From the NCBI GenBank assembly GCA_037200965.1, contig JBBCGK010000001.1, positions 448,001 to 512,000 of the forward strand: a stretch of DNA of 64,000 bases, read 5' to 3'. Made by a program: the position numbers and the translations under genes. Below, piece by piece: positions 26,766 through 56,085 of the stretch. Under the pieces are notes generated by a model. That model was given only the letters and a program-made list of their open reading frames with translations, did no database searches and was not told the DNA's origin. Source of the DNA: a bacterium. Lineage in GTDB: Bacteria; Patescibacteriota; Minisyncoccia; Phycocordibacterales; Phycocordibacteraceae. Within the stretch, counting starts at the first letter, position 1. Every line of letters begins with the position of its first letter.

Positions 26766-26801
26766 GTTGCACAACCTCCTTTTTACGAACGATCCTGCAG
26801 G
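26766..26801 (-). repeat. 36-bp array repeat, copy 2
   Basis: Exact match to the 36-mer. Confidence 0.95.
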
Positions 26802-26803
26802 AC

Positions 26804-28715: not shown

Positions 28716-28850
28716 GCGGGATCACGTTTTTTTGCAGATGGCACGCCCGCGTGGGCTGTTTTGGTAATTGCCATAGCGTCTTGGCAACAACTGGGCGTCA
28801 GTACCTGGCTTCCCTCACAGGTTGAATATATTACAGTATAGCTCAACCAT

Positions 28851-29855: not shown

Positions 29856-29947
29856 CTCGTGTATAGTCCATACGACCGATCTTCCTGACACCAATAGGCA
29901 TCGGCCAAATCGTGATTGCTGACCAACGTTTTGCGCCGAGCGACCGC

Positions 29948-30238
29948 CTAGTCGGGATCGTAGGGATTATTGGTATCCGTGCCATTGCGCGAGGAACCAG
30001 ACGGCGAACTATACGGATCGACGCGCTTGTGACCTTGCTCGCCCGTATAGGGGTTCACGTTTGGATACGTCGAGTAATTGTTATAGGGATTGCTGTCAGG
30101 CGATGAGCGATGGTGTGGCGGAACATACGTGCCGTCCTTCCGCACATAGCCTCTGACACTGACGTCCTTCGCTGCCGCCTCAGCGCCAGTGGCCAGCAGG
30201 GTCGTGAAGACCAAAAGGGCGGCAAAAATCTTGCGCAT
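29948..30238 (-). CDS. small secreted hypothetical protein (Pro/Tyr/Asn-rich)
   Basis: MRKIFAALLVFTTLLATGAEAAAKDVSVRGYVRKDGTYVPPHH... has a signal peptide. Confidence 0.5.
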   Translation of the reverse strand: MRKIFAALLVFTTLLATGAEAAAKDVSVRGYVRKDGTYVPPHHRSSPDSNPYNNYSTYPNVNPYTGEQGHKRVDPYSSPSGSSRNGTDTNNPYDPD

Positions 30239-30348
30239 ATTAACTCCGATCAAAAATGCGGCTCGATGCTAGTTTAGTGGCTGGCGCAGGGCCAGAGGAA
30301 TAATCTTCGCAAGCGTGCGTCAGGCCACGCCCTACGGTAACGCGTCGA

Positions 30349-31314: not shown

Positions 31315-31444
31315 GTACCCGCTCCCCCTCACTATTCGTGCCCAGGATGCGAGGACTCGCCCTAGCCGAAGAACGGATGATGCCCGGATGATTTCACCCG
31401 TCCAAGAGGAATGTGCGCCTTAGACTTCGTATCGGGCCGGGCCT

Positions 31445-32350
31445 ATGCTGCTTCTATTGGTGGGGTGTTTCTCAGGGGGTATTGGCATGACTAGCGGCAC
31501 GCGAGTTTTTCCGACGCGTTCGTATCGGGCATCATTTCCCATTCATGCGCTTCTTGCCGTCTTCGCGCTTCTCGTCGCGGGTGCGTATGGCCCGGCCGGT
31601 TCGGCCTTGGCCGCGACCAGCGCGGCGTCCTTCTGCCTTGACGCATGCCCCGAGGGCGCGCCGGCAAAGAACAAGACGGTCGTGCACCATGTCTATGCGC
31701 TCAGCTCGAACCCCGACACGAAATTCGCCGATTGGGTCGCGTACAAGATCTCCAAAGCGACCATCGGGTCGAACTGTTCGCGCAAGTGGGCGAAGGACCC
31801 GGACCTAGCGGCCGGCACCACGCTCAAGCCCGCCGATTACAAGGACATCAGTGCGGCGCTCCAGTCCGACCGGGGCCATCAAGCGCCCTTGGCAAGCCTA
31901 TGCGGCTCGAAGTTCAATGCCGAGGCGAACTATCTCTCGAACATCACCCCACAAAAGTCCGACCTCAATCAGGGCGCATGGGTGCGGCTCGAAACCGCCG
32001 AACGCAAGCTCATTACGGGCGGCACCGCGAAGACCGTGTATACCGTCACCGGGACGCTCTACGAAAAGAAGATGCCGCCGCTTCCCAAGGCGAGCGTCAA
32101 GCACAAAGTCCCTTCGGGCTATTGGAAGATCGTCGCCGTCGAGACGGACGACGGGATCGACGCCGTGGCGTTCGTCATGCCGCAGGATACACCCAAAGCC
32201 GCCGATTATTGCGAAACGCGCACCACCATCGGCGACGTTGAGACGCGCTCGGGCCTCAAGTTCTTCCTCGATCTCAACGAGACCGACCGCACGCAGCTTG
32301 AGGAGAGCGAGGCGAAGACCGGCCTCTATGAGGATTTGGGCTGCGAGTAG
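31445..32350 (+). CDS. secreted DNA/RNA non-specific endonuclease (Serratia nuclease / Endonuclease_NS family)
   Basis: N-terminal signal/TM. Active-site motif SDRGHQAPLAS (DRGH). Confidence 0.8.
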   Translation: MLLLLVGCFSGGIGMTSGTRVFPTRSYRASFPIHALLAVFALLVAGAYGPAGSALAATSAASFCLDACPEGAPAKNKTVVHHVYALSSNPDTKFADWVAYKISKATIGSNCSRKWAKDPDLAAGTTLKPADYKDISAALQSDRGHQAPLASLCGSKFNAEANYLSNITPQKSDLNQGAWVRLETAERKLITGGTAKTVYTVTGTLYEKKMPPLPKASVKHKVPSGYWKIVAVETDDGIDAVAFVMPQDTPKAADYCETRTTIGDVETRSGLKFFLDLNETDRTQLEESEAKTGLYEDLGCE

Positions 32351-32371
32351 CACGAGCGCGGGAAGATACGG

Positions 32372-32660
32372 CATGCGCAAGGCATTCATACTGACGCTGG
32401 TGGCGTTCTCCGCACTTGCGGCAACCCCACTCATCGCGCGGACCACGGATGCGGAAGTCCGGGGACAAATGATCCGCGAGTCCATCGCAAGCTATCCCGG
32501 CAACTGCCCGTGTCCGTACAGCACGATGCGAAACGGGCGCTCCTGCGGCGGGCGAAGCGCGTACAGTCGGCCCGGCGGATATGCTCCGCTGTGCTACCCG
32601 TCTGACGTTTCGGACGATATGGTGCGCGGCTATCGAAGCACGCATGGGCTCGGGAACTGA
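32372..32660 (+). CDS. small secreted Cys-rich hypothetical protein
   Basis: MRKAFILTLVAFSALAATPLIA (signal), then ...SYPGNCPCPYSTMRNGRSCGGRSAYSRPGGYAPLCYP. Confidence 0.45.
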
Positions 32661-32856
32661 TCGATCCGATTGATATCTGGCGAAGCGCGCAAACGCTCAT
32701 CTCGCTCTATGGCGATGAGGCGGAACAGTTCGCGCTTCGCCGCGCCGCTACCCTGCTCGGCGAAGGAGACCGGGAGGGCCATGCGGCAATGGCAAGCGTT
32801 GCGGAAGCGGTGAAGAAGCTGCGGCAGGAGCGGCCCGAAAGCGGCGATGCCGTCCA

Positions 32857-33264
32857 CTAGTCGGCGTCCGGCAGCTTATCGGAAGCCTCGGCAAACTCCC
32901 GCACCAGCGCGACGATGTGCTTGCGCCGGGCGGGCGACTTGACCTGCGCGAACGCTCTCGCAAGCGCCCGCCCGTCGGCGCTCGAAAGCAGCGGCATTTC
33001 TTCCGCGAACAGTGCCGAACGGGCTTTGTCGTATGCCTCGGAAACGAAGTATTCCCAGGGCAGATCAAGCACCACCATCATCCGCAACAGCGCTTCAAGC
33101 GGCAGCCGGTTGGTTCCCTTTTCATACTTCTGCATCTGTTGGAAACTAACGCCGAGGCGCTTTCCGAGAGCGAGTTGCGACAGGCCGCGCAGCGTCCGTG
33201 CGGCAAATATCTTTTGGCCGATAATCTTATTGATCTCTGACGAACTGTGCTTGCGCGGGGCCAT
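32857..33264 (-). CDS. XRE-family (Cro/C1-type) HTH transcriptional regulator
   Basis: IGQKIFAARTLRGLSQLALGKRLGVSFQQMQKYEKGTNR. Confidence 0.75.
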   Translation of the reverse strand: MAPRKHSSSEINKIIGQKIFAARTLRGLSQLALGKRLGVSFQQMQKYEKGTNRLPLEALLRMMVVLDLPWEYFVSEAYDKARSALFAEEMPLLSSADGRALARAFAQVKSPARRKHIVALVREFAEASDKLPDAD

Positions 33265-33340
33265 TCTCAATCCCGTTATACTATCGATCTCGCAAATTCT
33301 ATGGCGCGAAAACCCCATTGTCGCGCGCAATCTCAGCCTG

Positions 33341-34324
33341 TTACGCCTCCTTCATCCACTCCCGGTGCATGCGCTCCCATTCCGGGCGCGGCGCTTCGAA
33401 CTCTTCCCGGAACCACGGCATATGCTCTGGCACGAAGACCGTCTCGCGCAGGAACGCGAGCGTCGATTTGACGGCGGGTTTTGCGGCATGCACGCGGTTA
33501 TATGAGATGTAGAGCTTGCCGGGAAGGCGAAACGCAAGCGGAAGGGCGACGAGGTCCGGGTCGCCAAGCGCGTGGTAGGTAGGTGCGAGCGCGATGCCCG
33601 CGCCAAAATGCAGGCACCGCTCGAAGAAGCTCGTCTGGTTGGTGAGGATCGACACGTTCTTGACGACGTTTCCGCCCGACCATGCGGCCCAGGATGCCGT
33701 GCGCGTCTGATACTGGGCGAGATCGAGCAACCGGTGCTCGCTAAGCGCTTCGCTCGTCTGCGGCGTCCCGTGTTTTTGCAGATAGGACTTCGACGCGAAC
33801 AGGGCGTAATGGACGGTCGCGAGCGGCCTCGACACCTGATCCGAATTTCCCGGATCGTAGAAGTGGATGCGGATGTCGAAGCTGTCGCTTCGGGGCGCGG
33901 TGATGTCCTGATCGGGCGATACCTTGAGCTCAATGTTCGGATGCCGTTCGAGGAAGCTCGGCATGAACTGCGCCAGCCAGAGGCTCGCAACCCCGTCCGC
34001 GACCAGGATGCGGCAGTCGCCTTGAACGCTGCCTCCGCTGTCCTTCGCGTCCCTGCGAAGGAGCGCAATGCATTTGCGCGCCTCAAACGCGTTCGGAAGC
34101 AGACGTTCGCCGAGGTCGGTGAGCGCGCAGCCGTCGGTGCCGCGTATGAATACGCGCCCGCCGATCCACTGTTCGAAGCTGCGCAGCCGCTTGCTCACGG
34201 TTGCCTGCGTTGATCCGAGCATCGCCGCGGCCCGCTTGATGCTGCCGCCCTCGGCGATTGCGAGAAAATAGCGGAGATCGTTCCACTGCTCGGGCGAGGG
34301 GTCATCACTATTGGAAAGTACCAT
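33341..34324 (-). CDS. LysR-family transcriptional regulator
   Basis: N-terminal HTH LRYFLAIAEGGSIKRAAAMLGSTQATVSKRLRSFEQWIGGRVFIR, followed by a ~200-aa substrate-binding domain. Confidence 0.85.
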   Translation of the reverse strand: MVLSNSDDPSPEQWNDLRYFLAIAEGGSIKRAAAMLGSTQATVSKRLRSFEQWIGGRVFIRGTDGCALTDLGERLLPNAFEARKCIALLRRDAKDSGGSVQGDCRILVADGVASLWLAQFMPSFLERHPNIELKVSPDQDITAPRSDSFDIRIHFYDPGNSDQVSRPLATVHYALFASKSYLQKHGTPQTSEALSEHRLLDLAQYQTRTASWAAWSGGNVVKNVSILTNQTSFFERCLHFGAGIALAPTYHALGDPDLVALPLAFRLPGKLYISYNRVHAAKPAVKSTLAFLRETVFVPEHMPWFREEFEAPRPEWERMHREWMKEA

Positions 34325-34425
34325 CTTCCGTCCCTTGGCTTCCGGGCGGCGATAATCGAATGGCAATTTAAGCTCCGGCAACAAAAAAATGCATAAGGCG
34401 CCAGGCGGCGCCGTGGAGTAATTCC

Positions 34426-35592
34426 TTGGAAAAGAACGATTTTAGCGCGATACGAAGCGGTACCTACGGGCCCGAACATGCCGCAGCGCATCCCGATGGG
34501 GGAAGCGTATGGCTGCGTCCGGCCGGGGTCGGGGATATTCCGTTTGTGCATAGCCTGACCGTCTCGGACATCTCCGCCGAAACGGCACCGGAGGAGGTTA
34601 TTCGGGCTGTTCACGCCCGCAATCCCGATGCCCTGTGGCTTATCGAGCGCCAAAGAGGCGGGGAGCCACCGGCCCCTATCGGCTATTTCGGCTTCCTGCC
34701 GCTCACCGATCCCGGTCTCGACGCGCTCAAGGAAGGCGCGCTCGACCGCAAGAGCCCGCCGCTTGAGCTTGTGGCCGAGGGCGGCACGCGTCCGGCGGCG
34801 GTGTACGTGTGGGGCGTCGTGGCGCATCGCCTAGTGCGGGTCACCGCGCCGCTCCTCACCCTCGCGCTTTCGCCTTACATCGACGTTCCCTTCTACACCG
34901 TCTCCCAGACCGAAGAGGGGCTGCGCTCGGCCCGTAGGCGCGGCTTCGTGCCGGTCGATGCGCGGATCGGCGACCGGGGCGGGCTCGTGCTGCTGCCGCT
35001 TGGCAGCCTTCTTGCGCCGCCGCCAAGCAAAGTCGCGCAGCTCGACGTGATCGTGGCCTCGAACGCCGAGCACCTCATGATGTGCGCCTATGTTCGCGGC
35101 GTGGTGTTCGGCGCGGAGCAGCTCGCCCCCTACCGCGAGGAATTCGACGGCAACGACTTCTGCGGCATCCAGCTTCTGGGGTTCGTGAACAACGAGCCTG
35201 CGGCAGTGCTTCGCATCCGTCACTTCGCGTCATTCGCGAAATTCGAGCGGTATGCCGTGCTCGAGCGCTTCCGCAAAACGCGGATCAAGTACGAAATCCT
35301 GGAGTTCGGAATCGAGCTGTGCCGCCGCAAGGGATACACGAAGCTCTACGCGCACTCGCAGGTGCGCCTCGTCCGCTTCTATGAGCGGTTCGGCTTTCGT
35401 CTGTGCGCCGCGCAGCGTCCGCTCGTCTTCGCGGATCACGAATACGTCGAGATCGAAGCCGACCTCGCGCCGCATCCCGAGGCGATCACGACCGCCACCG
35501 ATCCCTACGTGATCATCCGACCCGAAGGGGCGTGGGACAGGCGCGGCGTTCTTGACCAGTCAGCGGCACGGCCCGCGACTAATCCCGTCTAG
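34426..35592 (+). CDS. GNAT-family N-acetyltransferase (tandem acetyltransferase-like domains)
   Basis: Two GNAT-like cores, one near 34.6-34.9 kb and a second ...CAYVRGVVFGAEQ...YTKLYAHSQVRLVRFYERFGF. Transcribed divergently from the LysR gene. Confidence 0.6.
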   Translation: MEKNDFSAIRSGTYGPEHAAAHPDGGSVWLRPAGVGDIPFVHSLTVSDISAETAPEEVIRAVHARNPDALWLIERQRGGEPPAPIGYFGFLPLTDPGLDALKEGALDRKSPPLELVAEGGTRPAAVYVWGVVAHRLVRVTAPLLTLALSPYIDVPFYTVSQTEEGLRSARRRGFVPVDARIGDRGGLVLLPLGSLLAPPPSKVAQLDVIVASNAEHLMMCAYVRGVVFGAEQLAPYREEFDGNDFCGIQLLGFVNNEPAAVLRIRHFASFAKFERYAVLERFRKTRIKYEILEFGIELCRRKGYTKLYAHSQVRLVRFYERFGFRLCAAQRPLVFADHEYVEIEADLAPHPEAITTATDPYVIIRPEGAWDRRGVLDQSAARPATNPV

Positions 35593-36098
35593 GAGTGCTC
35601 GACATGGCCGGAACGCTCGATTGCTTTGTCCGCCTTGTTGAACTCGACACCTGCGTGCGTGAGTTGGCACAGCGCAAGCGCGCGAATAATAGGATCAGCA
35701 TATCCGATCTTGATGACGTTCTCCTGGCGCTTGCTGAAGCTCGGGAAACGATCCAGGACGACGCGTATGACGAGATGGCGAGGCGGCGAGCGATAACAAC
35801 GGCGGACATAATGCAGTTCGCAAAAGATTAGCGAAAGCGCGCGGCTCTATTCAAAACGCGGCCTACGACAAGTTCGCAACTATTCGTCCGACAACACTCG
35901 CCCGATAACGGATCATTCGGCAACCAGAGGATAATGAGTATATCGCGGGAGCGAAGCATAGGAGACGATGCAGTGCATAGTCCGTCATAAATTCAACGGC
36001 GGCATCCTGATGGTAGCTGTATAACAGCGTGGTGCCGGAACTTCCCCTTGTAGCCAATACCGGGCTTCGTTACAAAGCTTCAAGGGGAGGCTATATGC

Positions 36099-37734
36099 AT
36101 GCTTAATCACACCTTTGGAGTGATCTCGCTGGGTCGTTTCCTCACTGCTATACGTCCTGCGCGTTATGCGGTCCGCTCTGCCAATCGAACACGCTTCGGC
36201 CAAGGGCTGGTCTCGGTCCGCACCCTAGTCGTCGCTGCGTGCGTTGCAATGAGTTGGCTAGCCGCATTGCCGCAAGCCGCCATCGCGAGCAGCGTCTTGA
36301 TGAGCGTGCCAGGCGAAAGCGACGTAAACTCGGCGGGTGCCTTCACATATTCACTTCCTATTGCAGTTCCGCCCGGGACTGCCCGCATCGTACCGCGACT
36401 GTCGCTTGATTATTCCAGTCAAAGCGGCAATGGCCTCCAAGGCCTCGGCTGGTCGCTTTCCGGATTGCCGGCAATAGGAAGATGCGCGCGCACGGTGGCG
36501 CAAGACGGCGTGCATGGCAGTGTCAATTACGACGGCAGCGACAAATTCTGCTTGGAAGGCCAGCGCCTAGTCGCCCTAAGCGGCGTCTATGGCGCGAACA
36601 ATACGGAATATCGTACCGAAATAGAGAGTTTCACCAAAATTATTTCATACGGAACGGCGGGTAACGGGCCAGCCTCGTTCAAAGCGTGGACCAAGTCCGG
36701 TCAAATCCTGGAATTCGGAAACACGGCGGATTCCCGTATCGAAGCGGTCGGCAAGACAACGGTGCGCGCGTGGGCCGTCAATAAGGTTTCCGATGCCAAA
36801 GGAAACTACGTCACGGTCGAATACACCGACGACCAAACTAACGGAGAGGCGTATCCGGTTCGGATTGATTATACCGGCAATCCCAACGCAACGCCGGTGG
36901 TTATGCCGTACAATTCCGTGCAGTTCACATACACAACGCGCGCAGATATCACGATTGCCTATCAGGCCGGTTCGCAGCAGAAGATCACAAAACTTCTCAC
37001 CAATATTAAGACTTATCAAGCCGCGAATTTGGTTTCCGACTATCGCCTTGCCTATCAAGCCGGCTCATCGCTCGCACATTCGCGTCTAACGTCCATCACG
37101 TTATGTGATGGGTCGGGTACGCCGGTATGCCTTGCCCCCACGACCTTTGGCTGGCAGGGTGGCAGCGGTAGCCTGCCGACAATGACCGGGACCGCATCCA
37201 CTATCATTCCGACGCAAAGCGGTGATTTCAACGTTGACGGATTAACAGACCCCTTTGTCAAAGCCCCGTATTTTGGAACTCAGAGCGGAACGTTCGTCGC
37301 GAGCGGCATGACTATAAGCTATACCGACCCCATATCGGGATTGCCGTGGTCGGGTCTAACGGCTTTCCCCAACACAATGGTCGGGTTTGTATTGGGTGAT
37401 ACCGACGGAGACGGGTATAGCGACGTCACCGCGATGCGGGGTATCGCACATGGCGCTTATGCCAGGTTGGTGGTTACGCGCAACGACCAGCTCGGAAATC
37501 TTGGTCAGATCGGCCTGATCGATCCGCTGCATGCTGGCGCCATATTCAGCGGCGACTTCAATGGAGACGCGCGCACGGACGTTTTCGTGACGGGTGTAGC
37601 TTCTTATAACAGTACGACGTATCTGAGCCTGGGGACCGGATCGTTCACCGCCATCAACATGAGTTCGGTATATGAACCCATCACGACCGCCGATTTTGAT
37701 GGTGACGGATGCACCGATTTCTTGGGATCGACTA
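36099..37734 (+). pseudogene. N-terminal portion of an SpvB-domain / FG-GAP-repeat polymorphic-toxin (Tc-toxin TcB / RHS-like) protein, cut at repeat 3
   Basis: SpvB-type N-terminus (RLSLDYSSQSGNGLQGLGWSLSGLPAIGRCARTVAQDGVHGSVNYDGSDKFCLEGQRLV). FG-GAP-like Ca-binding repeats (FNVDGLTD, GDTDGDGYSDV, GDFNGDARTDVF, ADFDGDGCTDFLGS). The homology ends exactly where the 36-mer begins. The 160 aa after the repeat are frame-read-through junk. Confidence 0.7.
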
Positions 37735-37770
37735 GTTGCACAACCTCCTTTTTACGAACGATCCTGCAGG
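37735..37770 (-). repeat. 36-bp array repeat, copy 3
   Basis: Exact match to the 36-mer. It cuts into the SpvB/FG-GAP ORF. Confidence 0.95.
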
Positions 37771-37784
37771 TTTCCGTTAATCTT

Positions 37785-39125
37785 CTAAGTCTCTTGTTGA
37801 GACGCAACACAGCCCCACGCCGCTTTTACCGAGTCATAGATAAAGCCTACCGTCAGAACCTTGGATATAACCGTCGTGGTTGGCAACGCCGTGCCTTCTG
37901 CCACGAACGACGCCCCCCAGGTAATCGCCCGGGCCGTACCGTCGTCTTTGATCCTGAAGATGAGCGTCTGGAAGTTCGTGGGTGTACCGGAGAGATTTGT
38001 CGTCATCGACGTGATCGCGGTCGCAAGAGCAGTAATCGTCACGGCGTCGCACCCATCGCTATTCACTGTAGGGGTTGCCGAAGAAACAATCGTCGTTATG
38101 CGTGGAGTATTTCTCTTATTTGCAAGAGTCTGTGTACCATTGTTAGTCACGACACTGTCAGCGTTTGTGCCTGCAACCGAGATTCTCAAATCTCCTGTTC
38201 CAACGGTAAGCACTCCTGAGGTGTGCGTTGCAACCCAGTTACCGTTACTAATGTTCCAGGTAAAACCAGTAGCACTAAAGAGATCGGCCCATCCAAGCGC
38301 GGTCGTCCCAAGAGCGGCAATATCATTCGTGACCGGGGAAAGAGCGGAGGAGGTAAGTTGTATCGTTCCTGTTCCGTTGATAGCCAGACCAAGCGTATTG
38401 GTTGTAGGAAGGTAGAGGCGATTACCGGTAGCAGTTGAAGAGGTAGGAGCAAAGCCAGCCGCAGTTGCCAGCGATGCCAACGTCAAAGCTCCGGCGTCGG
38501 TCAAGGTTGCATTGGTGGATGTTGCTTGTGCGCCGCGCGAAGTACCATCGGACCGAAGTATAGATTCATCTGTGGCAAAAGTGGCGGCAGCGGTGACTAC
38601 ATTACTCGGTATATCGCTTGTAAGAGCGACGGTACCCGTGGACGCCGGAAGGGTAATGGTGTTAGTTCCAGCGATTGCCGTAGGGACGAGGGCGATGGTA
38701 CCGGAAGTTGAACCCGAGAAGGTTACACCCTGGGTACCGGAAATGATGCCAGTGGTGTCAGCAATAAGCACTGCCGAGTTCTGGATCAGCTTACCAGTGG
38801 TAGTGTCGAAGCGGGCCACGGCGTTATCAGTTGCTGAAGCCGGGCCTACAACATAGGTAGCAAGGGAAGCAGTCGTAGGAATAACATAGCCGCTTTGGAG
38901 CGCTATAGCGATCGTTCCGGAAGTAGTGATCGGTACGCCGGATACCGTAAGTCCTGTCGGTACCGTAGCGTCAACGGATGTAACCGTACCTCCTCCTCCG
39001 GGGAGGTCTATAAGAAGCCTGTGCGTCGTCGGGTCTGCATATAGACGCACAGGCGTCTTGCCGTCAGCGCTTGAAGCTGCTATCAGCGTTGGAACATCGT
39101 TCTGGTCTCGGTAAGCATCAGCCAT
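37785..39125 (-). CDS. phage tail-fibre-like protein (Thr/Gly/Ala-rich beta-helical)
   Basis: MADAYRDQNDVPTLIAASSADGKTPVRLYADPTTHRLLIDL, then ~400 aa of T/G/S/A-rich repeats. The stop lies 14 nt from repeat 3. Confidence 0.55.
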   Translation of the reverse strand: MADAYRDQNDVPTLIAASSADGKTPVRLYADPTTHRLLIDLPGGGGTVTSVDATVPTGLTVSGVPITTSGTIAIALQSGYVIPTTASLATYVVGPASATDNAVARFDTTTGKLIQNSAVLIADTTGIISGTQGVTFSGSTSGTIALVPTAIAGTNTITLPASTGTVALTSDIPSNVVTAAATFATDESILRSDGTSRGAQATSTNATLTDAGALTLASLATAAGFAPTSSTATGNRLYLPTTNTLGLAINGTGTIQLTSSALSPVTNDIAALGTTALGWADLFSATGFTWNISNGNWVATHTSGVLTVGTGDLRISVAGTNADSVVTNNGTQTLANKRNTPRITTIVSSATPTVNSDGCDAVTITALATAITSMTTNLSGTPTNFQTLIFRIKDDGTARAITWGASFVAEGTALPTTTVISKVLTVGFIYDSVKAAWGCVASQQET

Positions 39126-39127
39126 AA

Positions 39128-39318
39128 TCAGGTACTTTGTACGAGTAATTCCCCGGCACTATTGGCGTAGAGCACCACAGGCGTCTTGCCGTCAGCGCTT
39201 GAGACAGCCATGAGTGCAGGAACAAAGTTTGCGTCCCGCAGATCGTCTACCGGCCCAAAGTCCGACCCGGTAGTGTCGTCGTCCGCCATAAGCGCATGTG
39301 TTGAAGGGTCAGCAACGA
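39128..39318 (-). pseudogene. partial tandem duplicate of the tail-fibre N-terminus, running into repeat 4
   Basis: ...FVPALMAVSSADGKTPVVLYANSAGELLVQ is paralogous to DVPTLIAASSADGKTPVRLYADPTTHRLLI of the downstream gene. The frame begins inside the 36-mer. Confidence 0.5.
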
Positions 39319-39354
39319 GTTGCACAACCTCCTTTTTACGAACGATCCTGCAGG
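39319..39354 (-). repeat. 36-bp array repeat, copy 4
   Basis: Exact match to the 36-mer. Confidence 0.95.
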
Positions 39355-39451
39355 AGTATGAGTACTGATACCGTCCAATCTGCCATTGAATATGCGCGAC
39401 ACTCGCCGTCGTGACGACGTTGAGTTAAGTCAATGGCGATTTATGTTACTG

Positions 39452-39973
39452 TCACCGGACCGGCACGAACCCTTCGGGAAGAAACTGCGTCGGGTCCTTC
39501 CACGGTTCAATAGCAACTGCTTTGGGGTATTTGCTTATCATGTAAGCATCGGTGCAATACACCAAACTTTCGGGATCATCGTCCGAAGGCTCAAGGCCTG
39601 AAAATTCAACCATCACAGATTTCTGGTTGGTAATTTTTCCAAAGGTGTCAATGAACCGCTTGATTTTGTCAAACTCACGCACAAAATCGTCGGGCTCAAA
39701 TAGATAGGAATACACTACTACTGTATTCTCGCCGACGATCCGTTCGGAACCGTCCTCATTTTTCACGCGGAAACGCCCAGCGGCGAGCGGCAATTGGGTT
39801 ACACCGCCATTGATCCGCACCATAATTTCCATGGCGCTATCGACCCATTTGTCAAAATTTTCAACAGGCTTCTGATCGCGATCTTGGTTAGGCAAATAAA
39901 CTGCAAACCGTTGTACCGATTCAGATGTATCGGCACCTAGCGCGGTCTTGAGGTCAAAATCTACGAGCGCCAT
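39452..39973 (-). CDS. hypothetical protein
   Basis: 173-aa ORF that is AT-richer than the core genome. No confident motif. Confidence 0.45.
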   Translation of the reverse strand: MALVDFDLKTALGADTSESVQRFAVYLPNQDRDQKPVENFDKWVDSAMEIMVRINGGVTQLPLAAGRFRVKNEDGSERIVGENTVVVYSYLFEPDDFVREFDKIKRFIDTFGKITNQKSVMVEFSGLEPSDDDPESLVYCTDAYMISKYPKAVAIEPWKDPTQFLPEGFVPVR

Positions 39974-39994
39974 GATCGCTTCCTATTAGCCATC

Positions 39995-40024
39995 AATGAA
40001 AAGGCCCCATAGCCGGGGCCTTAA
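39995..40024 (-). terminator. rho-independent terminator after the PRTase-like gene
   Basis: Minus sense reads AAGGCCCCGGCUAUGGGGCCUUUUCAUU. Confidence 0.6.
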
Positions 40025-40059
40025 AGTAGGCAAAATGCCAAATTGCAACGCTGATGCCG

Positions 40060-40695
40060 CTACCGCGGTCTTGAAGGTCTCCGAATTCCGAGCACCGTTT
40101 TAGGGTCCCGCTTGATCTTTAGAAACCGTCCAAATCCCGAACGAGCGTCTTCAGGTTTCTCCGCTTGTTGGGAAGCTGAACGAATCGCTGTCACTATCTC
40201 GTTAGCAGCTTCTGATATGGGCGGCAAATTTTGCCGGTTATAGTCGCCTGGCGGGATTCCCGCGTGCTTCTTTTTCATATGATTTTCTCCTGTTTCTTCA
40301 CAGGGTTGCGACCCATCGGTCTCAGCCCCGTGTTGATCGGGAGAAAGCCCTTCAAGAATCGGGCCGCGTACGTCGGTTTCCCAGGTTAAGGCTTCGACGC
40401 GAATATCCTGGCCACGGTCCGTCCTTATGCTTTCGCGATGGGGACCATACCCACATAGTACCACAGCGGCATGCGTAGTCGCGCCCGAAATCTCGTGGAC
40501 TATATCCGCAGCAGCGCCAATACCAGCGCCCGTTACTATCAAGTCATAGACCATCAAGATGCGATCACCGGAAAGCGGTTTGTCTGCCGTTATTGCTACG
40601 CCCTTCGCCCAACGCGTCTCGCGATAGATGCAGGCGGGCAATCCGGTTTCGGCGACGAGGGACGAGAGCATCGAAATCGCGCCGACCGGCCCCAT
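40060..40695 (-). CDS. phosphoribosyltransferase (PRTase) domain protein
   Basis: PRPP-binding motif RILMVYDLIVTGAGIGAAADIV. The start abuts repeat 5 at ~35 nt. Confidence 0.6.
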   Translation of the reverse strand: MGPVGAISMLSSLVAETGLPACIYRETRWAKGVAITADKPLSGDRILMVYDLIVTGAGIGAAADIVHEISGATTHAAVVLCGYGPHRESIRTDRGQDIRVEALTWETDVRGPILEGLSPDQHGAETDGSQPCEETGENHMKKKHAGIPPGDYNRQNLPPISEAANEIVTAIRSASQQAEKPEDARSGFGRFLKIKRDPKTVLGIRRPSRPR

Positions 40696-40729
40696 CTCTT
40701 TTTCGATAAAGCACAATCGCGTAATGCCG

Positions 40730-40765
40730 GTTGCACAACCTCCTTTTTACGAACGATCCTGCAGG
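40730..40765 (-). repeat. 36-bp array repeat, copy 5
   Basis: Exact match to the 36-mer. It cuts into the patatin-like ORF. Confidence 0.95.
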
Positions 40766-41363
40766 AAACCATGAGAGAACCCGAGTTGATCTCGGTGGCC
40801 ACGATCTTCAAAGGCGACAACTCGTTAAATTCCTCATAGTTCAGGTCAGCGAACCGAATTCGATCAGGCACTCCATCGTGATCACGACCATTTGCGGCAT
40901 ATAATTCCCGCATACGTTCTCGAAGAACTGTGTTGATGAATTCACGAATGGGCGTTGTGGTGAAAAAGCCTAAGTGCCGCCATATGCGCAGCATTCCAAA
41001 CGTAACTAGGGGAGCTGTTAAAAAAGACAATAATACACCCCCCAACGCCGTAGCGGACAATGCCCATCGAAGTCCCTGGCGGAGGCGAACAAATCTACGC
41101 CAATCATCAGCCCCCAATAACGTTACGGGGGTCAAGTTATGTAGGCTGAGAATATTTTGATCCCTAATGTCGGGATTCATCAAAGTCGAAGCACTGTATC
41201 CCGCCGCGACTAGCGTTGCCACGATCGCGCCAGCTGACGCCCCGGCTACACCTACGAAGGCGAGCCCATTCTTCGCGGCACCCTCCAAAGCACCAATATG
41301 CGCTATGCCCTTAGCACCGCCACCTTCGAATATGCCAAAGGCTGGCCTCTTAGCGTCCATCAC
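40766..41363 (-). pseudogene. patatin-like phospholipase, C-terminally truncated at repeat 5
   Basis: Oxyanion hole FEGGGAKGIAH and nucleophile elbow GASAGAIVATL are present. The reading frame runs straight into the 36-mer (…EINSGSLMVS|CRIVRKKEVVQ) before any DGG catalytic-Asp motif. Confidence 0.65.
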
Positions 41364-41496
41364 TGTATGTATCCTTTCGCAAATCAGGTCGGGGCCTGCA
41401 CAAACGACAGAACATCGGACAGGCTGGTGAAATAATGAGATACCAGCCTTCGCACATTGCTGTTCCGCATACAGATACAGCAGTTGCTAGTTCAAA

Positions 41497-43068
41497 TCAG
41501 TTCAGTTGCTCCCGCACCAACGAAAGATCGTTGAACAACGTTCTCGTAAGATTCGGGATTTTTTCCAGTTTGTCTGCTTGTATTAACTTCGCCATAAAAC
41601 GAATGCTTCCCTCCACTCGCTCGTCATAGAATATTTCGTGCAGAAACTTCCGCCCCTGCCGCAAATCCGTAGCATCAAACAGAAATTCCAGCTTGGCTTC
41701 GTTATCGACCATAGCAACTGCACGCCAAAAGAATCGAGGAAAATTCGCTGTCAGGAGGCTCTTGCGGACTATCTTGCTTAGGGAGGAGCGCGAAACAATC
41801 TCGCGTTTCAGATCGCTTGGGCCATTCAAAAATATGTCCCACTCGAAACGAGCCATATCACTATTGCTCGATAATTTTTTAAGCATCTCTAAAATATGAT
41901 CAAATGCCAGGATAGCATCGTACACGTCGTCAAATCGGACGCGAATTTTGCTATAGAGCGGCACGAGACACAAATCCGCGCGAGCACGGGTTATCTTCGT
42001 CCCACGCTTTCGAGACCAAGTTGTCGTTATGATGTTAGATGGGCCGCTCAGCTTGATCTCAGAGTATGGGCCGATGCCGTCGTCATGCGCATACAGTTTG
42101 GTTATGCGCGTCGCCCGTAGAAGAAAACCCGTGCGAGGTTCGGGTACTATGGGACCAGTTGTGGGCCCAAGGCCGCTGAGTGCGACCGCGTGAAATGCTC
42201 GTTTGCTTTTCTTGGAGCGTTCTAAGTTGAAGTCAAAACTCAGAATGATCGGAATATTGCCCCTCAAGAATGCATTTGCTGCGGCTTGGATATTGGCTCG
42301 CTCGGGCGTCATAAACAAATCCGCTTCGAGACCGACATTGCGCAAAACGCCAGCCATTTGATCGATATCCAAGCCGTCGTTCGGGAGAGCTAGGCCAGCT
42401 GTTGGCAGCGAAGCAAACGCTCGTTTGGTTATTTCAATAGGTGATAAGATTGGATTGTCATACAAATTCGCCGTGCCATGCAGTGTAGTCCACAGAGCGC
42501 TGGTAGCGCATGCGCCAACCTCTCGGTCTTGTTCTTGAAAAGGCAGCGCACGTACAGGCAGATCTATGCCGAAAAGATTTGGTACATATCCGCGCTCAGT
42601 GAGGAAGCGACTCGATGGATTACTCCCAACCGGCGCCAAACACGTTCGCCCAATGATGGTTTCGGGAAGAGGTTTGACAACTACAAAGCCGTGATATCCC
42701 AAGACGTCGAACCTACACTCACCGCGGCCCGAAACGAAAAGCGCTTCGACCATATCTTTATCGAACGGTTGCCGAAAAAAGTGAATTCGTGAACATTCTT
42801 TCGGATAGTTCGCGTGGCATCTCGCGTAGTATCCTGTATGATCTTCGGCGAAATGCTTGTCGATGTAGTCGCGCTCAAATACAAGAGTTTCGATTTTCGC
42901 GGCTTCACAGTAACGAGCTAGAAAAATGACCTGGGGCTTTTGTGCAATTTGCTCCAGTCTAGGTTTAAATGCTCCGGCAACAAAAAGCGCTACCAAGTTC
43001 TCTCGATTGTACTTGAGTACTTGGTAGCGCTCGCCCATGTGATCTAACTGAATATCCGCGTACGTCAC
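41497..43068 (-). CDS. hypothetical protein with a possible papain-like (C39-type) cysteine peptidase motif
   Basis: 523 aa, AT-richer. The segment EQDREVGACATSALWTTLHG resembles the Q...C motif of C39 peptidases. This is weak. Confidence 0.45.
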   Translation of the reverse strand: MTYADIQLDHMGERYQVLKYNRENLVALFVAGAFKPRLEQIAQKPQVIFLARYCEAAKIETLVFERDYIDKHFAEDHTGYYARCHANYPKECSRIHFFRQPFDKDMVEALFVSGRGECRFDVLGYHGFVVVKPLPETIIGRTCLAPVGSNPSSRFLTERGYVPNLFGIDLPVRALPFQEQDREVGACATSALWTTLHGTANLYDNPILSPIEITKRAFASLPTAGLALPNDGLDIDQMAGVLRNVGLEADLFMTPERANIQAAANAFLRGNIPIILSFDFNLERSKKSKRAFHAVALSGLGPTTGPIVPEPRTGFLLRATRITKLYAHDDGIGPYSEIKLSGPSNIITTTWSRKRGTKITRARADLCLVPLYSKIRVRFDDVYDAILAFDHILEMLKKLSSNSDMARFEWDIFLNGPSDLKREIVSRSSLSKIVRKSLLTANFPRFFWRAVAMVDNEAKLEFLFDATDLRQGRKFLHEIFYDERVEGSIRFMAKLIQADKLEKIPNLTRTLFNDLSLVREQLN

Positions 43069-43529
43069 ACTGTGAACGGGATACGCCGACGGTCAGGAGA
43101 AATCTGGTTGGCTTGTTCTCGACTTTCAATTGCCTTGAGCATTGGCGAAAGACGCTTAGCGACTTGCGCAGTAAGATCAGTTCTGGAGGCCGTCGCCTTG
43201 GACTTGGGCCGTGCAGAACTCTTCGTCTTTTTGTGACGCATAGCGCAACCTCCAATTTCGGTGAGCAGGATGTTGCCCTCAGTTCCAGCCCGGCGGGTAT
43301 AAACTCCAACACGGGGATCAAAATCAAGCTCATGGACTTGACTTCCTGGAACGGGGCCGCCTAGGGCTCCCCTGTAACGAATCAGCCCTGTTCTTAACGT
43401 ACCACGAGCGCCTTCGTATCCCCAATATTTTGTATGTGGATAATCCACCAACACAAGTTCTTTGAATGGTGAGGCTGGCCGTTGCCTTTCCTCAGTGGCG
43501 TCGCCGTCCGTTGACCCAATCGCCTGCAT
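43065..43529 (-). CDS. hypothetical protein
   Basis: 154-aa ORF whose stop overlaps the next gene start (ATGA). Confidence 0.4.
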   Translation of the reverse strand: MQAIGSTDGDATEERQRPASPFKELVLVDYPHTKYWGYEGARGTLRTGLIRYRGALGGPVPGSQVHELDFDPRVGVYTRRAGTEGNILLTEIGGCAMRHKKTKSSARPKSKATASRTDLTAQVAKRLSPMLKAIESREQANQISPDRRRIPFTV

Positions 43530-43668
43530 AACAATTTAATGCCTTCCTTCTGGCAGCAGACCACTAGGAGCGGCAGACGGCCGTTCATTATCAGCGTGGA
43601 TCATTGGCTGGACCGAGCCCCAATCGGTGACTGATTCGTACGGCTAAAGACCGCTCGGGTCAACTAAG

Positions 43669-43704
43669 GTTGCACAACCTCCTTTTTACGAACGATCCTG
43701 CAGG
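43669..43704 (-). repeat. 36-bp array repeat, copy 6 (cas-proximal)
   Basis: Exact match to the 36-mer, 32 nt from the cas2 stop codon. Confidence 0.95.
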
Positions 43705-43736
43705 AGTCCGTGTATATTGAGCGGTAACGCGAATTA

Positions 43737-44033
43737 CTAGACAATCTCAAAGGACTTGATCTTATAATACTCCCCGATAACGGCATCGGCAGTTGAATTA
43801 AGTGCGCATGATTTGCAGGAAGAAAATAGATGCAGCCGATCCCGTTTTCCCGTGAATAGCGATCGCATCTTCATTTCAAATTCCCGGCGCTCCTTAAAGG
43901 AAAGGCGTCCGACGTAGAGAGTCTGTTGAAGTGCGGATAAACCATAGTCCTTTGATAACTTTTCCGCGCGGATCTGGCGCTGCCGATTGGCGGTTCTCCA
44001 GGCGACTATTGCAAGGAAGCATGGATCATTCAT
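43737..44033 (-). CDS. cas2: CRISPR-associated endoribonuclease Cas2
   Basis: 98 aa. FLAIVAWRTANRQRQIRAEKLSKDYGLSALQQTLYVGRLSFKERREFEMKMRSLF..KRDRLHLF fits the Cas2 pattern (l.lv.YDi..rrr.k..k.L..yG.r.Q.Svf.c.l...). It is ATGA-coupled to cas1. Confidence 0.75.
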   Translation of the reverse strand: MNDPCFLAIVAWRTANRQRQIRAEKLSKDYGLSALQQTLYVGRLSFKERREFEMKMRSLFTGKRDRLHLFSSCKSCALNSTADAVIGEYYKIKSFEIV

Positions 44034-45085
44034 GGTGCCGCATATTCAAACGGCACATATAAGGGCGCTTTTTCAAGAAATACCCGGCTTAAGAGCTCGC
44101 TCTGTTCCGTAATGGTATTGCGGAGCGTACGGCGTTTCCCGTGATGGAGGACTTTCGACTCGAGGCGCTTAAGCACCGCCTCAACCACCTTGCTCTTTCC
44201 TTGCGCAGAAAGCCGATATTCGATCTTGCTTACCTGCTCGAAATCGCCGCGCTTGCCAAGTTCCTGAGAAATGAAGAGCGGCATGACTGCAGCGTCGACG
44301 ACGGGGACCCGAAACTCTTCGACCAGATCGAGGACGAGCGCGGGCTTGCCGTAACGCTCGGAATGATAAAGTCCGAGATACGGGTCGAGACCGATATAAA
44401 GGCACGCCCGCTCGACTTCGTTATAGAGGATGCCGTATCCGTAATTAAGAGCGCTGTTGAACTTGTCCCTGCCTTGCGGTATCCGGCCCGGGAACTTAAA
44501 AAGCGATTTCATGCCTTGCCAATAGCGCTCTGCAATGGATCCTTCAAGGCCAAGCAGTTCCTCGTTCACCCGGTTGCTCGGAAGCAGCTTCGCTATCGAC
44601 TCAAAAACCGCCTCCGCCTGCATCCGCTCCTTCGCATTCTCCGCACCGTATCGGTCGGCAAGATGGCGCATAAAGCGGATTTGGTTGCGGCACTTACCGA
44701 CAACGAAGGTACGCGCAAGTTCGAAGGATTTAGCCGGATCGGAGGAAGTCGTAAGCTGTGCGCGGCGCAATGTCGCGAGCCCCTTCGGGTCGCTTGAGAA
44801 AATGCGCCCGACGGGTTTCCCAAATGCGCCGAGATAGACGATATCGACTTCGTGCTCGAGCGCGAGTTGCACCGCATGCATGGAAATGGAGGACGGACGG
44901 AGTATGACGATCTTAGCAAGCCGCCGGACCGGATACTCCTTCTTAACCCGGAGAAGCTTTACCGCAGTTCCCCGCTTGCGACGCCTGCCACCCCCAAGCG
45001 GCTTTCGCGGAACCGGGAGACTGACCGTAATACGCTCGCCCGTCGCGCCGATGAAGCTGCCATAGGTATCTATCAGCAAATCCAT
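44030..45085 (-). CDS. cas1: CRISPR-associated integrase Cas1
   Basis: 351 aa. GRDKFNSALNYGYGILYNEVERACLYIGLDPYLGLYHSERYGKPALVLDLVEEFRVPVVD is the Cas1 catalytic-core signature. N-terminal beta domain MDLLIDTYGSFIGATGERITV. Confidence 0.9.
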   Translation of the reverse strand: MDLLIDTYGSFIGATGERITVSLPVPRKPLGGGRRRKRGTAVKLLRVKKEYPVRRLAKIVILRPSSISMHAVQLALEHEVDIVYLGAFGKPVGRIFSSDPKGLATLRRAQLTTSSDPAKSFELARTFVVGKCRNQIRFMRHLADRYGAENAKERMQAEAVFESIAKLLPSNRVNEELLGLEGSIAERYWQGMKSLFKFPGRIPQGRDKFNSALNYGYGILYNEVERACLYIGLDPYLGLYHSERYGKPALVLDLVEEFRVPVVDAAVMPLFISQELGKRGDFEQVSKIEYRLSAQGKSKVVEAVLKRLESKVLHHGKRRTLRNTITEQSELLSRVFLEKAPLYVPFEYAAP

Positions 45086-45091
45086 GGGGCG

Positions 45092-45120
45092 TATATACTA
45101 CCGCCTTGACCTAGTGTCAA
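45092..45120 (-). promoter_or_regulatory. near-consensus sigma70-type promoter immediately upstream of cas1
   Basis: Minus sense reads TTGACA-ctaggtcaaggcggtag (17 nt)-TATATA. The -10 element ends 6 nt before the cas1 ATG, giving a near-leaderless transcript. Confidence 0.5.
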
Positions 45121-45140
45121 GGATCACGCAACGCCCTCGC

Positions 45141-46571
45141 TTACCCAAGCCTCGGAAACAGATTCTCCGGTTTCTTATTTTCCGTAACCGCCTCTTTTAT
45201 TTTCTCGCTCGTCGACGGCATGAAAGGACTGAGGAAACGGGCAATCCAATAGAGCTCGGCGGCGAGCCCGGCAATGATCGCTCTTCCCTTTTCCGGATCG
45301 TTCTTCACGAGCTTGAACGGCTCTTCGGCCGTGATGCGTTCGTCGGCAGCTTGTATGCGCGCGAATATGTAATCGAGCGCCTGATCGAAACGGAAAGCTG
45401 CGAACGCATCAATATATTCTTTCGGAAACGCTTCCGACGGGGCAGGACGCGCGACCGGCTCCGGAAGGTGCGTCTCGGCAAGCTTCATCACACGCGCGAC
45501 GAGGTTCCCGAGGCCGTTCGTAAGATTCGCGGTATACCACTCATCAAGCCGCTCCCACGTGACATCGGAATCTTCAACCGGATGCACGTGCCGAAGCAGC
45601 ATGTAGCGGGTGGCGTCCGTACCGTATTTCGCAACAAGCTCGCCCGGGCTTATGACATTCCCGAGACTCTTGCTCATCCGCTGCCCGCCGGAATTTATGA
45701 ATCCGTGATAGAAGACCTGATCGGTGTTCTTAATGCCGGCCGAAAAGAGCATCGCCTGCCACATAAGCGACTGGAATCGCACCTGATCCTTCCCTGCCGT
45801 CTGGAGCGTTTGTCCTTCCTCCCAGAACTTCTTGAAATTGCCGTCCGCGTCTCCGGGCCATCCGAGCGCCGAGATGTAGTTCGTAAGAGCGTCGAACCAG
45901 ACGTACATAACCTGCGTATCGTCTCCCGGAACCGGAACCCCCCACGAAAGCCGCGCTTTCTCGCGCGAGATACTGAAATCCTCGAGCCCTCCTTTCACGA
46001 AGCTGAGCGCCTCCTCCCTCCTCCACTCAGGAATTACGACATCCGGACGGGCGAGGTACTCGATCAGGCGGTCCTGATACTTTGAATATCTAAAGAAATG
46101 ATTTTCTTCCGAAATCTCCTGGAGCTCGAGATTTGGGTGGAGCACGCAATGCCCGTCGGCCAGCTCCTTTTCCGTCTTGTACGCTTCGCATCCGACGCAA
46201 TACCAGCCAACATAGGCCTTCTTATATATATCCCCCGCTGCCTCGCACCGCTTCCACATCTCCTCGGCAGCCCTGATATGCTCGGGGCTCGTCGTCCGCA
46301 TGAACCCGTCGTTAGTGAGTGCGAGCGTCTCCCTAAGCGAGCGTACCCGTCCCGCATAGTCGTCGACGTAGGCCTGCACATCCTGTCCTACTTTTTCGGC
46401 TGACTGGAATATCTTTTGCCCGTGCTCGTCGGTTCCAGTCGAGAAAAATACTTCTTCGCCAGAAAGCCGCCAGAAACGCGCAAGCGCGTCGGCCTGCACA
46501 AGCTCGAGCGCGAAGCCGATATGCTGATCGGCATTCACGTACGGAATCGTTGTCGTTACGTATCTCGCCAT
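45141..46571 (-). CDS. metG: methionyl-tRNA synthetase
   Basis: HIGH-type motif (PYVNADQHIGFA) and KMSKS (QRMSKSLGN). CxxC knuckle (WYCVGCEAY...CVLH). Confidence 0.9.
   Translation of the reverse strand: MARYVTTTIPYVNADQHIGFALELVQADALARFWRLSGEEVFFSTGTDEHGQKIFQSAEKVGQDVQAYVDDYAGRVRSLRETLALTNDGFMRTTSPEHIRAAEEMWKRCEAAGDIYKKAYVGWYCVGCEAYKTEKELADGHCVLHPNLELQEISEENHFFRYSKYQDRLIEYLARPDVVIPEWRREEALSFVKGGLEDFSISREKARLSWGVPVPGDDTQVMYVWFDALTNYISALGWPGDADGNFKKFWEEGQTLQTAGKDQVRFQSLMWQAMLFSAGIKNTDQVFYHGFINSGGQRMSKSLGNVISPGELVAKYGTDATRYMLLRHVHPVEDSDVTWERLDEWYTANLTNGLGNLVARVMKLAETHLPEPVARPAPSEAFPKEYIDAFAAFRFDQALDYIFARIQAADERITAEEPFKLVKNDPEKGRAIIAGLAAELYWIARFLSPFMPSTSEKIKEAVTENKKPENLFPRLG

Positions 46572-52713: not shown

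Positions 52714-52724
<11 letters not shown>
52164..52724 (-). CDS. recO: DNA repair protein RecO (short form)
   Basis: [48 protein letters not shown]... is a RecO N-terminal OB-fold. Confidence 0.6.

Positions 52725-56085
<3,361 letters not shown>

Follow-up and report, generated by a model that had tools for sequence, protein, structure and literature searches.

Cas1-Cas2 genes beside kilobase-spaced repeats in a patescibacterial genome: a possible effector-less integrase of long foreign DNA

CRISPR arrays are recognized by near-identical repeats of ~23-55 nt in the same orientation, by regular short spacers (~21-72 bp), and by an AT-rich leader of ~100-500 nt that carries the array promoter. 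Outside the Candidate Phyla Radiation (CPR), the nearest relatives of the Cas1 protein described here are archaeal (30-35% identical; ~32% for type III-A loci) and belong to systems of this ordinary kind. Their arrays have a period of 72-80 bp, and their 37-nt repeat, similar to the one described below, ends in ...GGACTGCAAC. The Methanospirillum stamsii locus among them is a complete type III-A system, with Cas10/Csm1, Csm2, Csm3, Csm4, and Csm5. The subject of this report is a cas1-cas2 module in 64 kb of a Patescibacteriota genome (GenBank assembly GCA_037200965.1, contig JBBCGK010000001.1, positions 448,001 to 512,000), and this whole stretch is called the window below. The module is followed by six identical copies of a 36-nt repeat, as in a CRISPR array, yet the segments between them measure 1375-10,933 bp and the leader has only 32 nt. 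The reading that we favor, at somewhat better than even odds, is that of a CRISPR-derived Cas1-Cas2 integrase, lacking both effector and molecular ruler, that belongs to a large clade of CPR/Patescibacteria and archives long exogenous DNA.

All elements of the module lie on the minus strand. The features of the locus are listed in the direction of cas1 transcription, with positions in the window; the segments between repeats are termed giant spacers, and the strand given for these is that of their genes.

45141-46571, minus strand: metG, directly upstream of cas1
45092-45122, minus strand: promoter-like element with a hairpin, its function predicted from the sequence
44030-45085, minus strand: cas1, 351 aa; PF01867 at 215 bits, TIGR00287 at 221 bits
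43737-44033, minus strand: cas2, 98 aa, divergent; Pfam at 18 bits, PADLOC Cas2 models
43705-43736, minus strand: short "leader" of 32 nt, from the cas2 stop to repeat 1, ending in ...GGACT
43669-43704, minus strand: repeat 1 (CCTGCAGGATCGTTCGTAAAAAGGAGGTTGTGCAAC), leader-proximal
40766-43668, minus strand: giant spacer 1, 2903 bp, GC content 0.51; a 154-aa open reading frame (ORF), a complete 523-aa gene, and a cut patatin gene
40730-40765, minus strand: repeat 2
39355-40729, minus strand: giant spacer 2, 1375 bp, GC content 0.52; a boundary-open ORF and a 173-aa ORF
39319-39354, minus strand: repeat 3
37771-39318, minus strand: giant spacer 3, 1548 bp, GC content 0.54; a 446-aa phage-type modular protein
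37735-37770, minus strand: repeat 4
26802-37734, both strands: giant spacer 4, 10,933 bp, GC content 0.60
26766-26801, minus strand: repeat 5
24586-26765, plus strand: giant spacer 5, 2180 bp, GC content 0.49; MazG-like, PurA/PurZ-like, and 250-aa ORFs, all antisense to the array
24550-24585, minus strand: repeat 6, distal, followed by the tail
24516-24549: 34-nt tail between repeat 6 and the syntenic tatD ATG at 24515
23718-24533, minus strand: tatD; start at 24533 in the ORF list, syntenic start at 24515

The six perfect repeat copies occupy one strand over 19.2 kb (24550-43704) between cas2 and tatD, where none is expected by chance. Their edges are sharp, the flanking DNA is unrelated, and the window holds no degenerate extra copies. 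From the cas2 side outward the intervening segments measure 2903, 1375, 1548, 10,933, and 2180 bp, and neither Tandem Repeats Finder nor a short-range repeat search detected an ordinary CRISPR array anywhere in the window. An earlier note on this DNA had placed cas1-cas2 and an array between metG and tatD, with a gap of 32 nt from cas2 to the first repeat. The flanking genes and the gap proved exact and the repeats do adjoin cas2; what did not hold is the ordinary layout that the word array implies, as the kilobase length of the spacers, the real anomaly of the locus, had gone unregistered.

The nearest relative as judged by MetG (locus L254, 81% identical) retains the empty site. Its neighborhood is fully syntenic with the window (IleRS, RecO, a GlyRS-type ligase, an AI-2E transporter, and MetG, then TatD, SSB, S18, EF-P, a sigma factor, RecA, and FtsK), and its metG and tatD genes overlap by 4 nt. 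In the window, the syntenic tatD ATG is 20.6 kb away from the metG stop, a distance made up of the cas1-cas2 module, the six repeats, the five segments, and the 34-nt tail; the whole of this 20.6 kb is therefore an insertion. The tatD start at 24533 is an in-frame ATG upstream of the syntenic one. Formerly coupled translationally to metG, tatD now appears dependent on transcription emerging from the array.

The same layout recurs across the Cas1 clade. A search with Cas1 returned 458 homologues at E<1e-20, the best 120 of which are 50-100% identical, and the named ones among these 120 are labelled Patescibacteria, Paceibacterota, or Parcubacteria. Loci for comparison came from three sources: genomes scanned at one per species (42 loci), exact-protein look-ups, and a degenerate-repeat scan of metagenomes (at least 120 contigs). 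In 10 of the 20 CPR loci tested, a repeat of 36-38 nt with the consensus CCTGCA-N8-TCG-N3-AA-N7-TGTGCAAC begins 22-38 nt after cas2; the leader ends in GCT in nine of these 10 and in GTC in L002. Related 36-38-nt repeats spaced 0.18-8 kb apart are present in L002/L009, L011, L012, L015, L019, L021, L024-L028, L036, L038, and L257, and start 11-38 nt after cas2 where the gap was measured. Spacings in four of these loci are given below.

L002: 1369, 1416, 1377, and 2414 bp
L021: 249, 2563, 181, 616, 4043, 423, and 178 bp
L036: 1119, 2495, 2555, 2262, and 1835 bp
L257: about 7045, 628, and 793 bp

Over all loci, the lengths of the 41 unique segments between repeats run from 140 to 10,933 bp (median 1,379 bp), and none falls within 25-50 bp. 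The repeat family is found on at least 120 metagenome contigs, and a period of ~70 bp is seen in none of the 80 with listed repeat positions. The degenerate repeat pattern, which recovers 27 of the loci, matched no viral contig in IMG/VR. An all-against-all ORF comparison over ±10 kb in 26 loci identifies only cas1 and cas2 as conserved (shadow ORFs overlapping them aside), with cas2 beside cas1 in 24 of the 26. L257 (11335-19837) carries a variant repeat, CCTACACACATACTACGCACAATAGACATTGTGTAAC, four times. Its first segment, of 7 kb, includes a complete gene for cysteinyl-tRNA ligase along with ATP-grasp genes and transposase fragments, which raises the question of host genes lying between repeats.

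The boundaries of the segments show little regard for genes. Reading inward from the repeats, segment ends open into ORFs with a median of 114 codons, compared with 137-157 for random cuts, and 53% of the boundary-touching open stretches reach at least 100 codons (68-69% for random cuts). Orientation is likewise unbiased, with 45 insert ORFs of at least 100 aa on the array strand and 35 on the opposite one. The first and last eight positions of the inserts contain no motif resembling a protospacer-adjacent motif or a recombination core, nor do the ends carry the terminal direct repeats expected if elements had entered by crossover at a short spacer. No insert is shared by arrays that sit on 97-99.8% identical cas1-cas2 copies, at least three of them in one metagenome-assembled genome (MAG), and the polarity of insertion is therefore something we infer. 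This pattern fits unselective capture of exogenous DNA fragments. Integron-like cassettes do not match it, nor do mobile elements that have entered an ordinary array.

The inserts of the window are foreign to their surroundings: none resembles the remainder of the window in DNA or protein sequence, and none derives from it. Their GC content of 0.49-0.60 compares with 0.575 in the host flanks. The patatin gene of spacer 1 is severed at the repeat after ~199 codons, before the catalytic Asp region. Its neighbor of 523 aa belongs to a family scattered over many phyla (35-49% identity); no near-identical copy was found outside this array, the next best being 49% identical, and no protospacer was identified. 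The boundary-open ORF of spacer 2 matches only the C-terminal part of phosphoribosyltransferases. Spacer 3 encodes a 446-aa protein that matches phrog_3030 and has 379 relatives in IMG/VR viral contigs, and that we read as tail-fibre-like. Within this ORF, a stretch of 74 nt is directly repeated (39037-39110 and 39165-39238; 74% identity, 128 nt apart), and the two copies probably encode a recurring protein module. Spacer 4, which no degenerate repeats subdivide over its 10.9 kb, holds genes for a TraG/phrog_5156-type (TraG/terminase-like) ATPase, ATP-grasp, S1/P1 nuclease, NS endonuclease, helix-turn-helix, LysR, and GNAT proteins, along with a SpvB/FG-GAP gene truncated by repeat 4.

In spacer 5, a MazG-like pyrophosphohydrolase gene lies directly upstream of the PurA/PurZ-like synthetase gene. 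The synthetase scores 362 bits with PRK04293, 219 bits with the PurZ model, and 244 bits with phrog_1211, and has a homologue in 219 phage records, 211 of which cover at least 80% of the query. No close relative was found in IMG/VR, and the GenBank phage homologues are only 33-36% identical. MazG next to PurZ is an arrangement that we take to be that of aminoadenine (Z-genome) phages, and spacer 5 may be a fragment of a Z-genome phage infecting the CPR bacterium or a neighboring one. Elsewhere in the clade the inserts are just as heterogeneous. They encode methyltransferases, outer-membrane beta-barrel proteins, tetratricopeptide repeat proteins, DNA polymerase III delta', D-Tyr-tRNA deacylase, NDK, and spermidine synthase, as well as two kinds of transposase (IS200 and IS66), an integrase of phage type, RadC, and a MazF toxin. 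Genes of a housekeeping type are thus among them.

Both enzymes of the module are what the earlier note had called them, although Cas2 is the weaker case. For Cas1, the profile scores given above are accompanied by invariant catalytic-type residues (E181, H241, D253, and E256) in an alignment of 35 clade sequences. A search of the PDB gives a CRISPR Cas1 as its top match (7cr6, 113 bits), ahead of 6opm (75 bits), which we take to be a casposase structure. No NCBIfam subtype model reaches its cutoff with this Cas1, the best being I-D at 166 (cutoff 385), Cas4g/Cas1g at 163 (560), and I-C at 154 (385). Cas2 stays below the Pfam gathering score (18 vs 23.8 bits), but four PADLOC Cas2 models match it (best E=9e-7), the clade profile finds nothing but Cas2 chains in the PDB (best E=1e-4), and the protein can be aligned with the TIGR01573-positive Cas2 of M. 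stamsii. Throughout the clade the canonical N-terminal Asp of Cas2 (YDI) is replaced, the motif reading W-R/E-T. The two genes overlap by 4 nt. A basic insertion, PRKPLGGGRRRKRGTAVKLLRVKK, is found near the N-terminus of the window Cas1 at residues ~25-45 (44951-45013); judged by length (350-352 vs 333-340 aa), the closest relatives probably have it too, and the clade consensus is without it.

Effector genes were sought with Pfam, NCBIfam, or PADLOC models in nearly all window ORFs of at least about 180 aa, and none was found in this set, smaller ORFs being partly covered. The flanks consist of housekeeping genes (rRNA, FtsK, RecA, a sigma factor, tRNA ligases, and SHMT). The same holds within ±10 kb of the module at 29 loci, where no Cas effector is conserved or annotated; these are the 26 compared above and three more with precomputed Pfam annotation, in which no Cas domain beyond Cas1 appears. 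The description of the module as an orphan adaptation unit thus stands, both for the scanned ORFs of the window and for the clade, in which only cas1 and cas2 are conserved. The two observations that the earlier note had named as able to overturn it were looked for. Effectors just beyond the module were absent from every locus, and normal arrays with a period of 72-80 bp occur only in the archaeal relatives with ~30-35% identical Cas1. The accompanying suggestion of storage or capture rather than interference agrees with the kilobase length, random cutting, random orientation, and heterogeneity of the inserts; as an overall interpretation it is supported in part. A CPR locus whose Cas1 is 40% identical (L038) already has repeats 3.5 kb apart. 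From these comparisons, the simplest view is that the module descends from an ordinary adaptation module associated with type III, and that effector and spacer-length control were lost inside the CPR.

The module itself seems to be copied or moved as a whole. In L024, L025, L027, L033, and L034 (~9899-11402), the cas1-cas2-leader-repeat unit is 97-99.8% identical and the DNA upstream is unrelated. The similarity begins sharply ~102 nt upstream of the cas1 ATG (TGTCCACGACGGGGACCC...), and at least three of these copies reside in one MAG. In L003 (9969-9986 and 11419-11436; also L004, L008, and L057), the 18-nt sequence AGGGAGTATGAGCGGGAT stands on both sides of the unit, and similarity between the flanks continues over 28 nt at 86%. 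Insertion of the module could have produced this as a target duplication; such a duplication was not seen in 16 other loci tested. A module fragment lies within an array in L036 (9966-11120, CAVYRH010000003.1): directly after a repeat comes a cas1 truncated at its 5' end (residues 112-346), and behind it stand cas2, the leader, and the next repeat. The array in question starts ~12 kb upstream at a second, frameshifted cas1-cas2 copy (L034), so that part of a module is itself an insert inside the array. Finally, L003 and L005-L007, from different samples, have identical Cas1 and the same upstream context and differ in the DNA that follows repeat 1, as if an insert had been gained or lost at the strain level, in contigs that end before a second repeat.

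How such arrays might arise can be outlined by analogy with CRISPR adaptation. Cas1-Cas2 would be the inserting enzyme and would attack both ends of the leader-proximal repeat, beside the very short leader, in a staggered manner; gap repair would then duplicate the 36-37-nt repeat at each event. Attack and repair of this type would explain why the 36-37-nt unit is exact and constant and why the leader is so short and fixed. If the complex no longer measured its substrate, the limit of ~35 bp having been lost, any long duplex whose ends can be held would be integrated. The inserted DNA would then be double-stranded fragments of 0.14-11 kb that stem from phages, from mobile elements, and from other bacteria, have arbitrary ends, and lie in either orientation; foreign DNA would accumulate downstream of cas2 as an archive that keeps growing. 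Stated in full, the proposal is that a domesticated Cas1-Cas2 has kept its target-side geometry, has lost its substrate ruler, and writes kilobase lengths of imported phage, plasmid, or host-bacterium DNA into the chromosome, as a new route of capture and transfer or as a memory that does not operate through CRISPR RNA (crRNA). We judge the chances of this fuller version to be even. As for use, capture and storage of imported DNA with occasional gene gain is a tentative suggestion, and a defence memory, possibly homology-based or acting through long RNA, is a doubtful one. Our best guess prefers capture and storage to classical crRNA-guided interference because the insert content is broad and the truncation random.

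Several points weigh against an integrase of long DNA. To our knowledge, Cas1-Cas2 complexes measure their substrate, and we know of none that integrates kilobase DNA in vivo. The part played by Cas1-Cas2 in insertion, and its polarity, are inferred, and no pair of strains was found that differs by a single leader-proximal unit; L003 and L005-L007 differ after repeat 1, on contigs that stop before a second repeat. Some spacers hold ordinary or essential-looking genes (CysRS in L257) or part of cas1 (L036), and these could reflect rearrangement rather than capture. The effector scan spans the window and ±10 kb around the other loci, which leaves room for effectors encoded in trans. Full-text searching, with incomplete coverage of the literature, found no description of Cas1-Cas2 with kilobase spacers.

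Room for trans-encoded effectors bears on the possibility that these arrays still serve CRISPR immunity, with an effector such as a type III Csm complex or a class 2 nuclease supplied from elsewhere in the genome, the repeats transcribed and processed, and only the 30-40 nt beside each repeat acting as guide after the rest is trimmed. Type III and Cas12a crRNAs are trimmed at their 3' ends, and a long spacer is no bar in principle to guide formation. Furthermore, the repeat ends in ...TGTGCAAC like those of the archaeal type III-A relatives and forms a hairpin with some covariation (83.9% of cells paired; score 0.205 vs 0.149 in shuffles, which is modest support). The hairpin is, however, compatible with either RNA processing or recognition by an integrase. 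We regard working immunity as unlikely. No effector was found within ±10 kb in 29 loci or in the scanned window ORFs, CPR genomes of ~1 Mb are mostly without CRISPR effectors, many inserts are cellular genes unrelated to phages, and it is left unexplained why all 41 spacers have at least 140 bp if ~35 nt mattered. Complete genes captured as cassettes and expressed from a promoter on the cas side, with repeats in the role of attC sites, would make the locus an integron-like platform. The coding density of the inserts (~0.8-0.9), the completeness of some genes (the 523-aa gene, the nucleases, the PurA-like gene), the module directly upstream with its promoter-like site, and the co-orientation of window spacers 1-3 with cas1-cas2 all point this way. 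We nevertheless find it improbable, in that ORFs are cut at the boundaries nearly as often as at random, the patatin, SpvB, and phosphoribosyltransferase genes are truncated at repeats, and orientation over the clade is mixed (45 vs 35). Moreover, neither a tyrosine recombinase nor any other gene besides cas1 and cas2 is conserved in the 26 loci, and the repeats are identical within an array, which attC sites are not.

The repeats might instead be sites for homologous recombination or for an Xer-type or other recombinase, with cas1-cas2 as the relic of a decayed type III system. In its favor, cas1 is frameshifted or partial in L034, L036, and L039, a module fragment lies between repeats in L036, and one insert carries a phage-type integrase. 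In most loci, however, Cas1 is intact with invariant catalytic residues, over >100 clusters at 50-100% identity, and the first repeat always stands at the same short distance from cas2; no conserved recombinase lies nearby, neither terminal duplications nor core-site motifs occur in the inserts, and no viral contig in IMG/VR bears the repeat. This explanation appears no more probable to us than integron-like cassettes. We give still less credence to a selfish, casposon-like cas1-cas2 element that leaves the neutral junk of a sloppy integrase behind it. The sharp left border ~102 nt before the ATG, the 99.8% identical copies (at least three) in different contexts of one MAG, the many unrelated genomic neighborhoods, and the 18-nt duplication around the L003 unit would suit such an element. 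Against it, there are no terminal inverted repeats upstream in 14 loci and no flanking duplication in 16 others, PolB and other casposon genes are missing, cas2 is present, and Cas1 is closer to CRISPR Cas1 than to 6opm. Finally, unrelated contigs could have been joined at a collapsed repeat, since 36 nt is close to a common assembly k-mer size and the source is a MAG. An artefact of this type is very hard to reconcile with the identical order of units in three assemblies (the window, GCA_015655515.1, and GCA_037975565.1) or with an independent Logan contig/unitig (L173) that consists of spacer 1 with 29 nt of repeat at each end. The same architecture also occurs in contigs with long-read-style names, including the complete chromosome OY969557.1 and the 1.08-Mb contig of L257, labelled circular, assemblies that presumably rest on long reads, and pieces without the repeat could not be joined at it. 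Capture of long exogenous DNA by Cas1-Cas2 remains our preferred account.

The region upstream of cas1 contains a possible promoter. A perfect -35 hexamer (TTGACA, 45120-45115) is followed after 17 nt by TATATA (45097-45092), which ends 6 nt before the cas1 ATG. TTGACA also falls within a 7-bp hairpin, where it forms part of one arm (arms CCTTGAC at 45122-45116 and GTCAAGG at 45110-45104, loop actag). The earlier note had called this promoter near-consensus; the elements and distances are as it described, but the wording overstates the match, as TATATA agrees with the -10 consensus at four of six positions and lacks the usually invariant last T. It is because of this missing T that a promoter scan tool, which expects ~1.1 promoter-like sites per 2 kb by chance, made no call at the site. 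The pattern TTGAC[AT]-N4-5-GTCAA, then TAT[AT]T at a like spacing, is kept in L002 and L010, the closest two relatives in which other genes lie upstream (their TAT-rich hexamer comes after 17-18 nt and ends 6-8 nt ahead of the ATG), and is not kept in L003. Such spacing would be predicted to give a leaderless cas1 mRNA. No CRISPR-DR or other RNA family in Rfam matches the repeat or the leader. In L016 and L017, partial direct copies of the repeat core (CTGTCGCAAAA) lie 59-79 nt upstream of cas1 and resemble repeat-like regulatory elements described for other CRISPR loci.

Two further features of the window lie outside the insertion. The 23S rRNA gene (753-6226 region, minus strand) has 4345 nt compared with 2925 nt in the model and includes a group I intron (2304-2520), with 5S rRNA at 753-860; CPR bacteria typically carry long insertions in rRNA. 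The isoleucyl-type class I tRNA ligase (52714-56085, minus strand, 1123 aa) has a His_Phos_1 domain at residues 502-674, between the halves of its catalytic domain, and the same insertion is found in the L254 enzyme (1121 aa). No tRNA gene was found in the 64 kb.

If Cas1-Cas2 truly inserts these fragments, control of spacer length is separable from target recognition, which bears on the long-standing scenario in which CRISPR arose from casposons; the module would stand as a living link between large-DNA integration in the manner of casposons and the acquisition of CRISPR spacers. Its natural integrase would put kilobase DNA into a defined 36-nt site with no RNA guide, a property of clear interest for engineering, and would offer CPR episymbionts with minimal genomes a route to sample the DNA of phages and of neighboring or host bacteria. 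The inserts, with their outer-membrane proteins and possible Z-genome phage cluster, could then be read as a record of encounters. Standard CRISPR finders overlook this whole class of repeat arrays.

Among described systems, the archaeal type III-A adaptation module of M. stamsii comes closest. The two have in common the Cas1 catalytic triad, an overlapping cas2, a partly palindromic repeat of 36-37 nt that ends in ...TGCAAC, a first repeat just downstream of cas2, and identical repeats with unique inserts. They differ in the size of the inserts (140-10,933 bp here and ~35-45 bp there), in the leader of 22-38 nt here, in the absence of csm and other effector genes from the CPR loci, in the loss of the Cas2 catalytic Asp, and in Cas1 sequence (~32% identical). 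Orphan cas1-cas2 loci known from genome surveys also have adaptation genes without interference genes. Here the condition is clade-wide, with an intact integrase and a systematic change in spacer size, unlike sporadic decay.

Casposons resemble the module in coupling a Cas1-family integrase to insertion of kilobase DNA and a short target duplication, and like them the module seems mobile. In contrast to casposons, it has no terminal inverted repeats (14 loci) and no PolB (26 loci), and cas2 is present; its integrase lies outside the inserted DNA, and a duplicated 36-nt repeat is reused in place of a 14-15-bp target duplication. With integrons it shares an integrase gene beside a one-directional series of kilobase units with short repeats, the content of which varies between close relatives. 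Unlike integrons, it has no IntI, its repeats are identical rather than variable attC hairpins, and its units are random fragments with truncated genes, inserted in either orientation.

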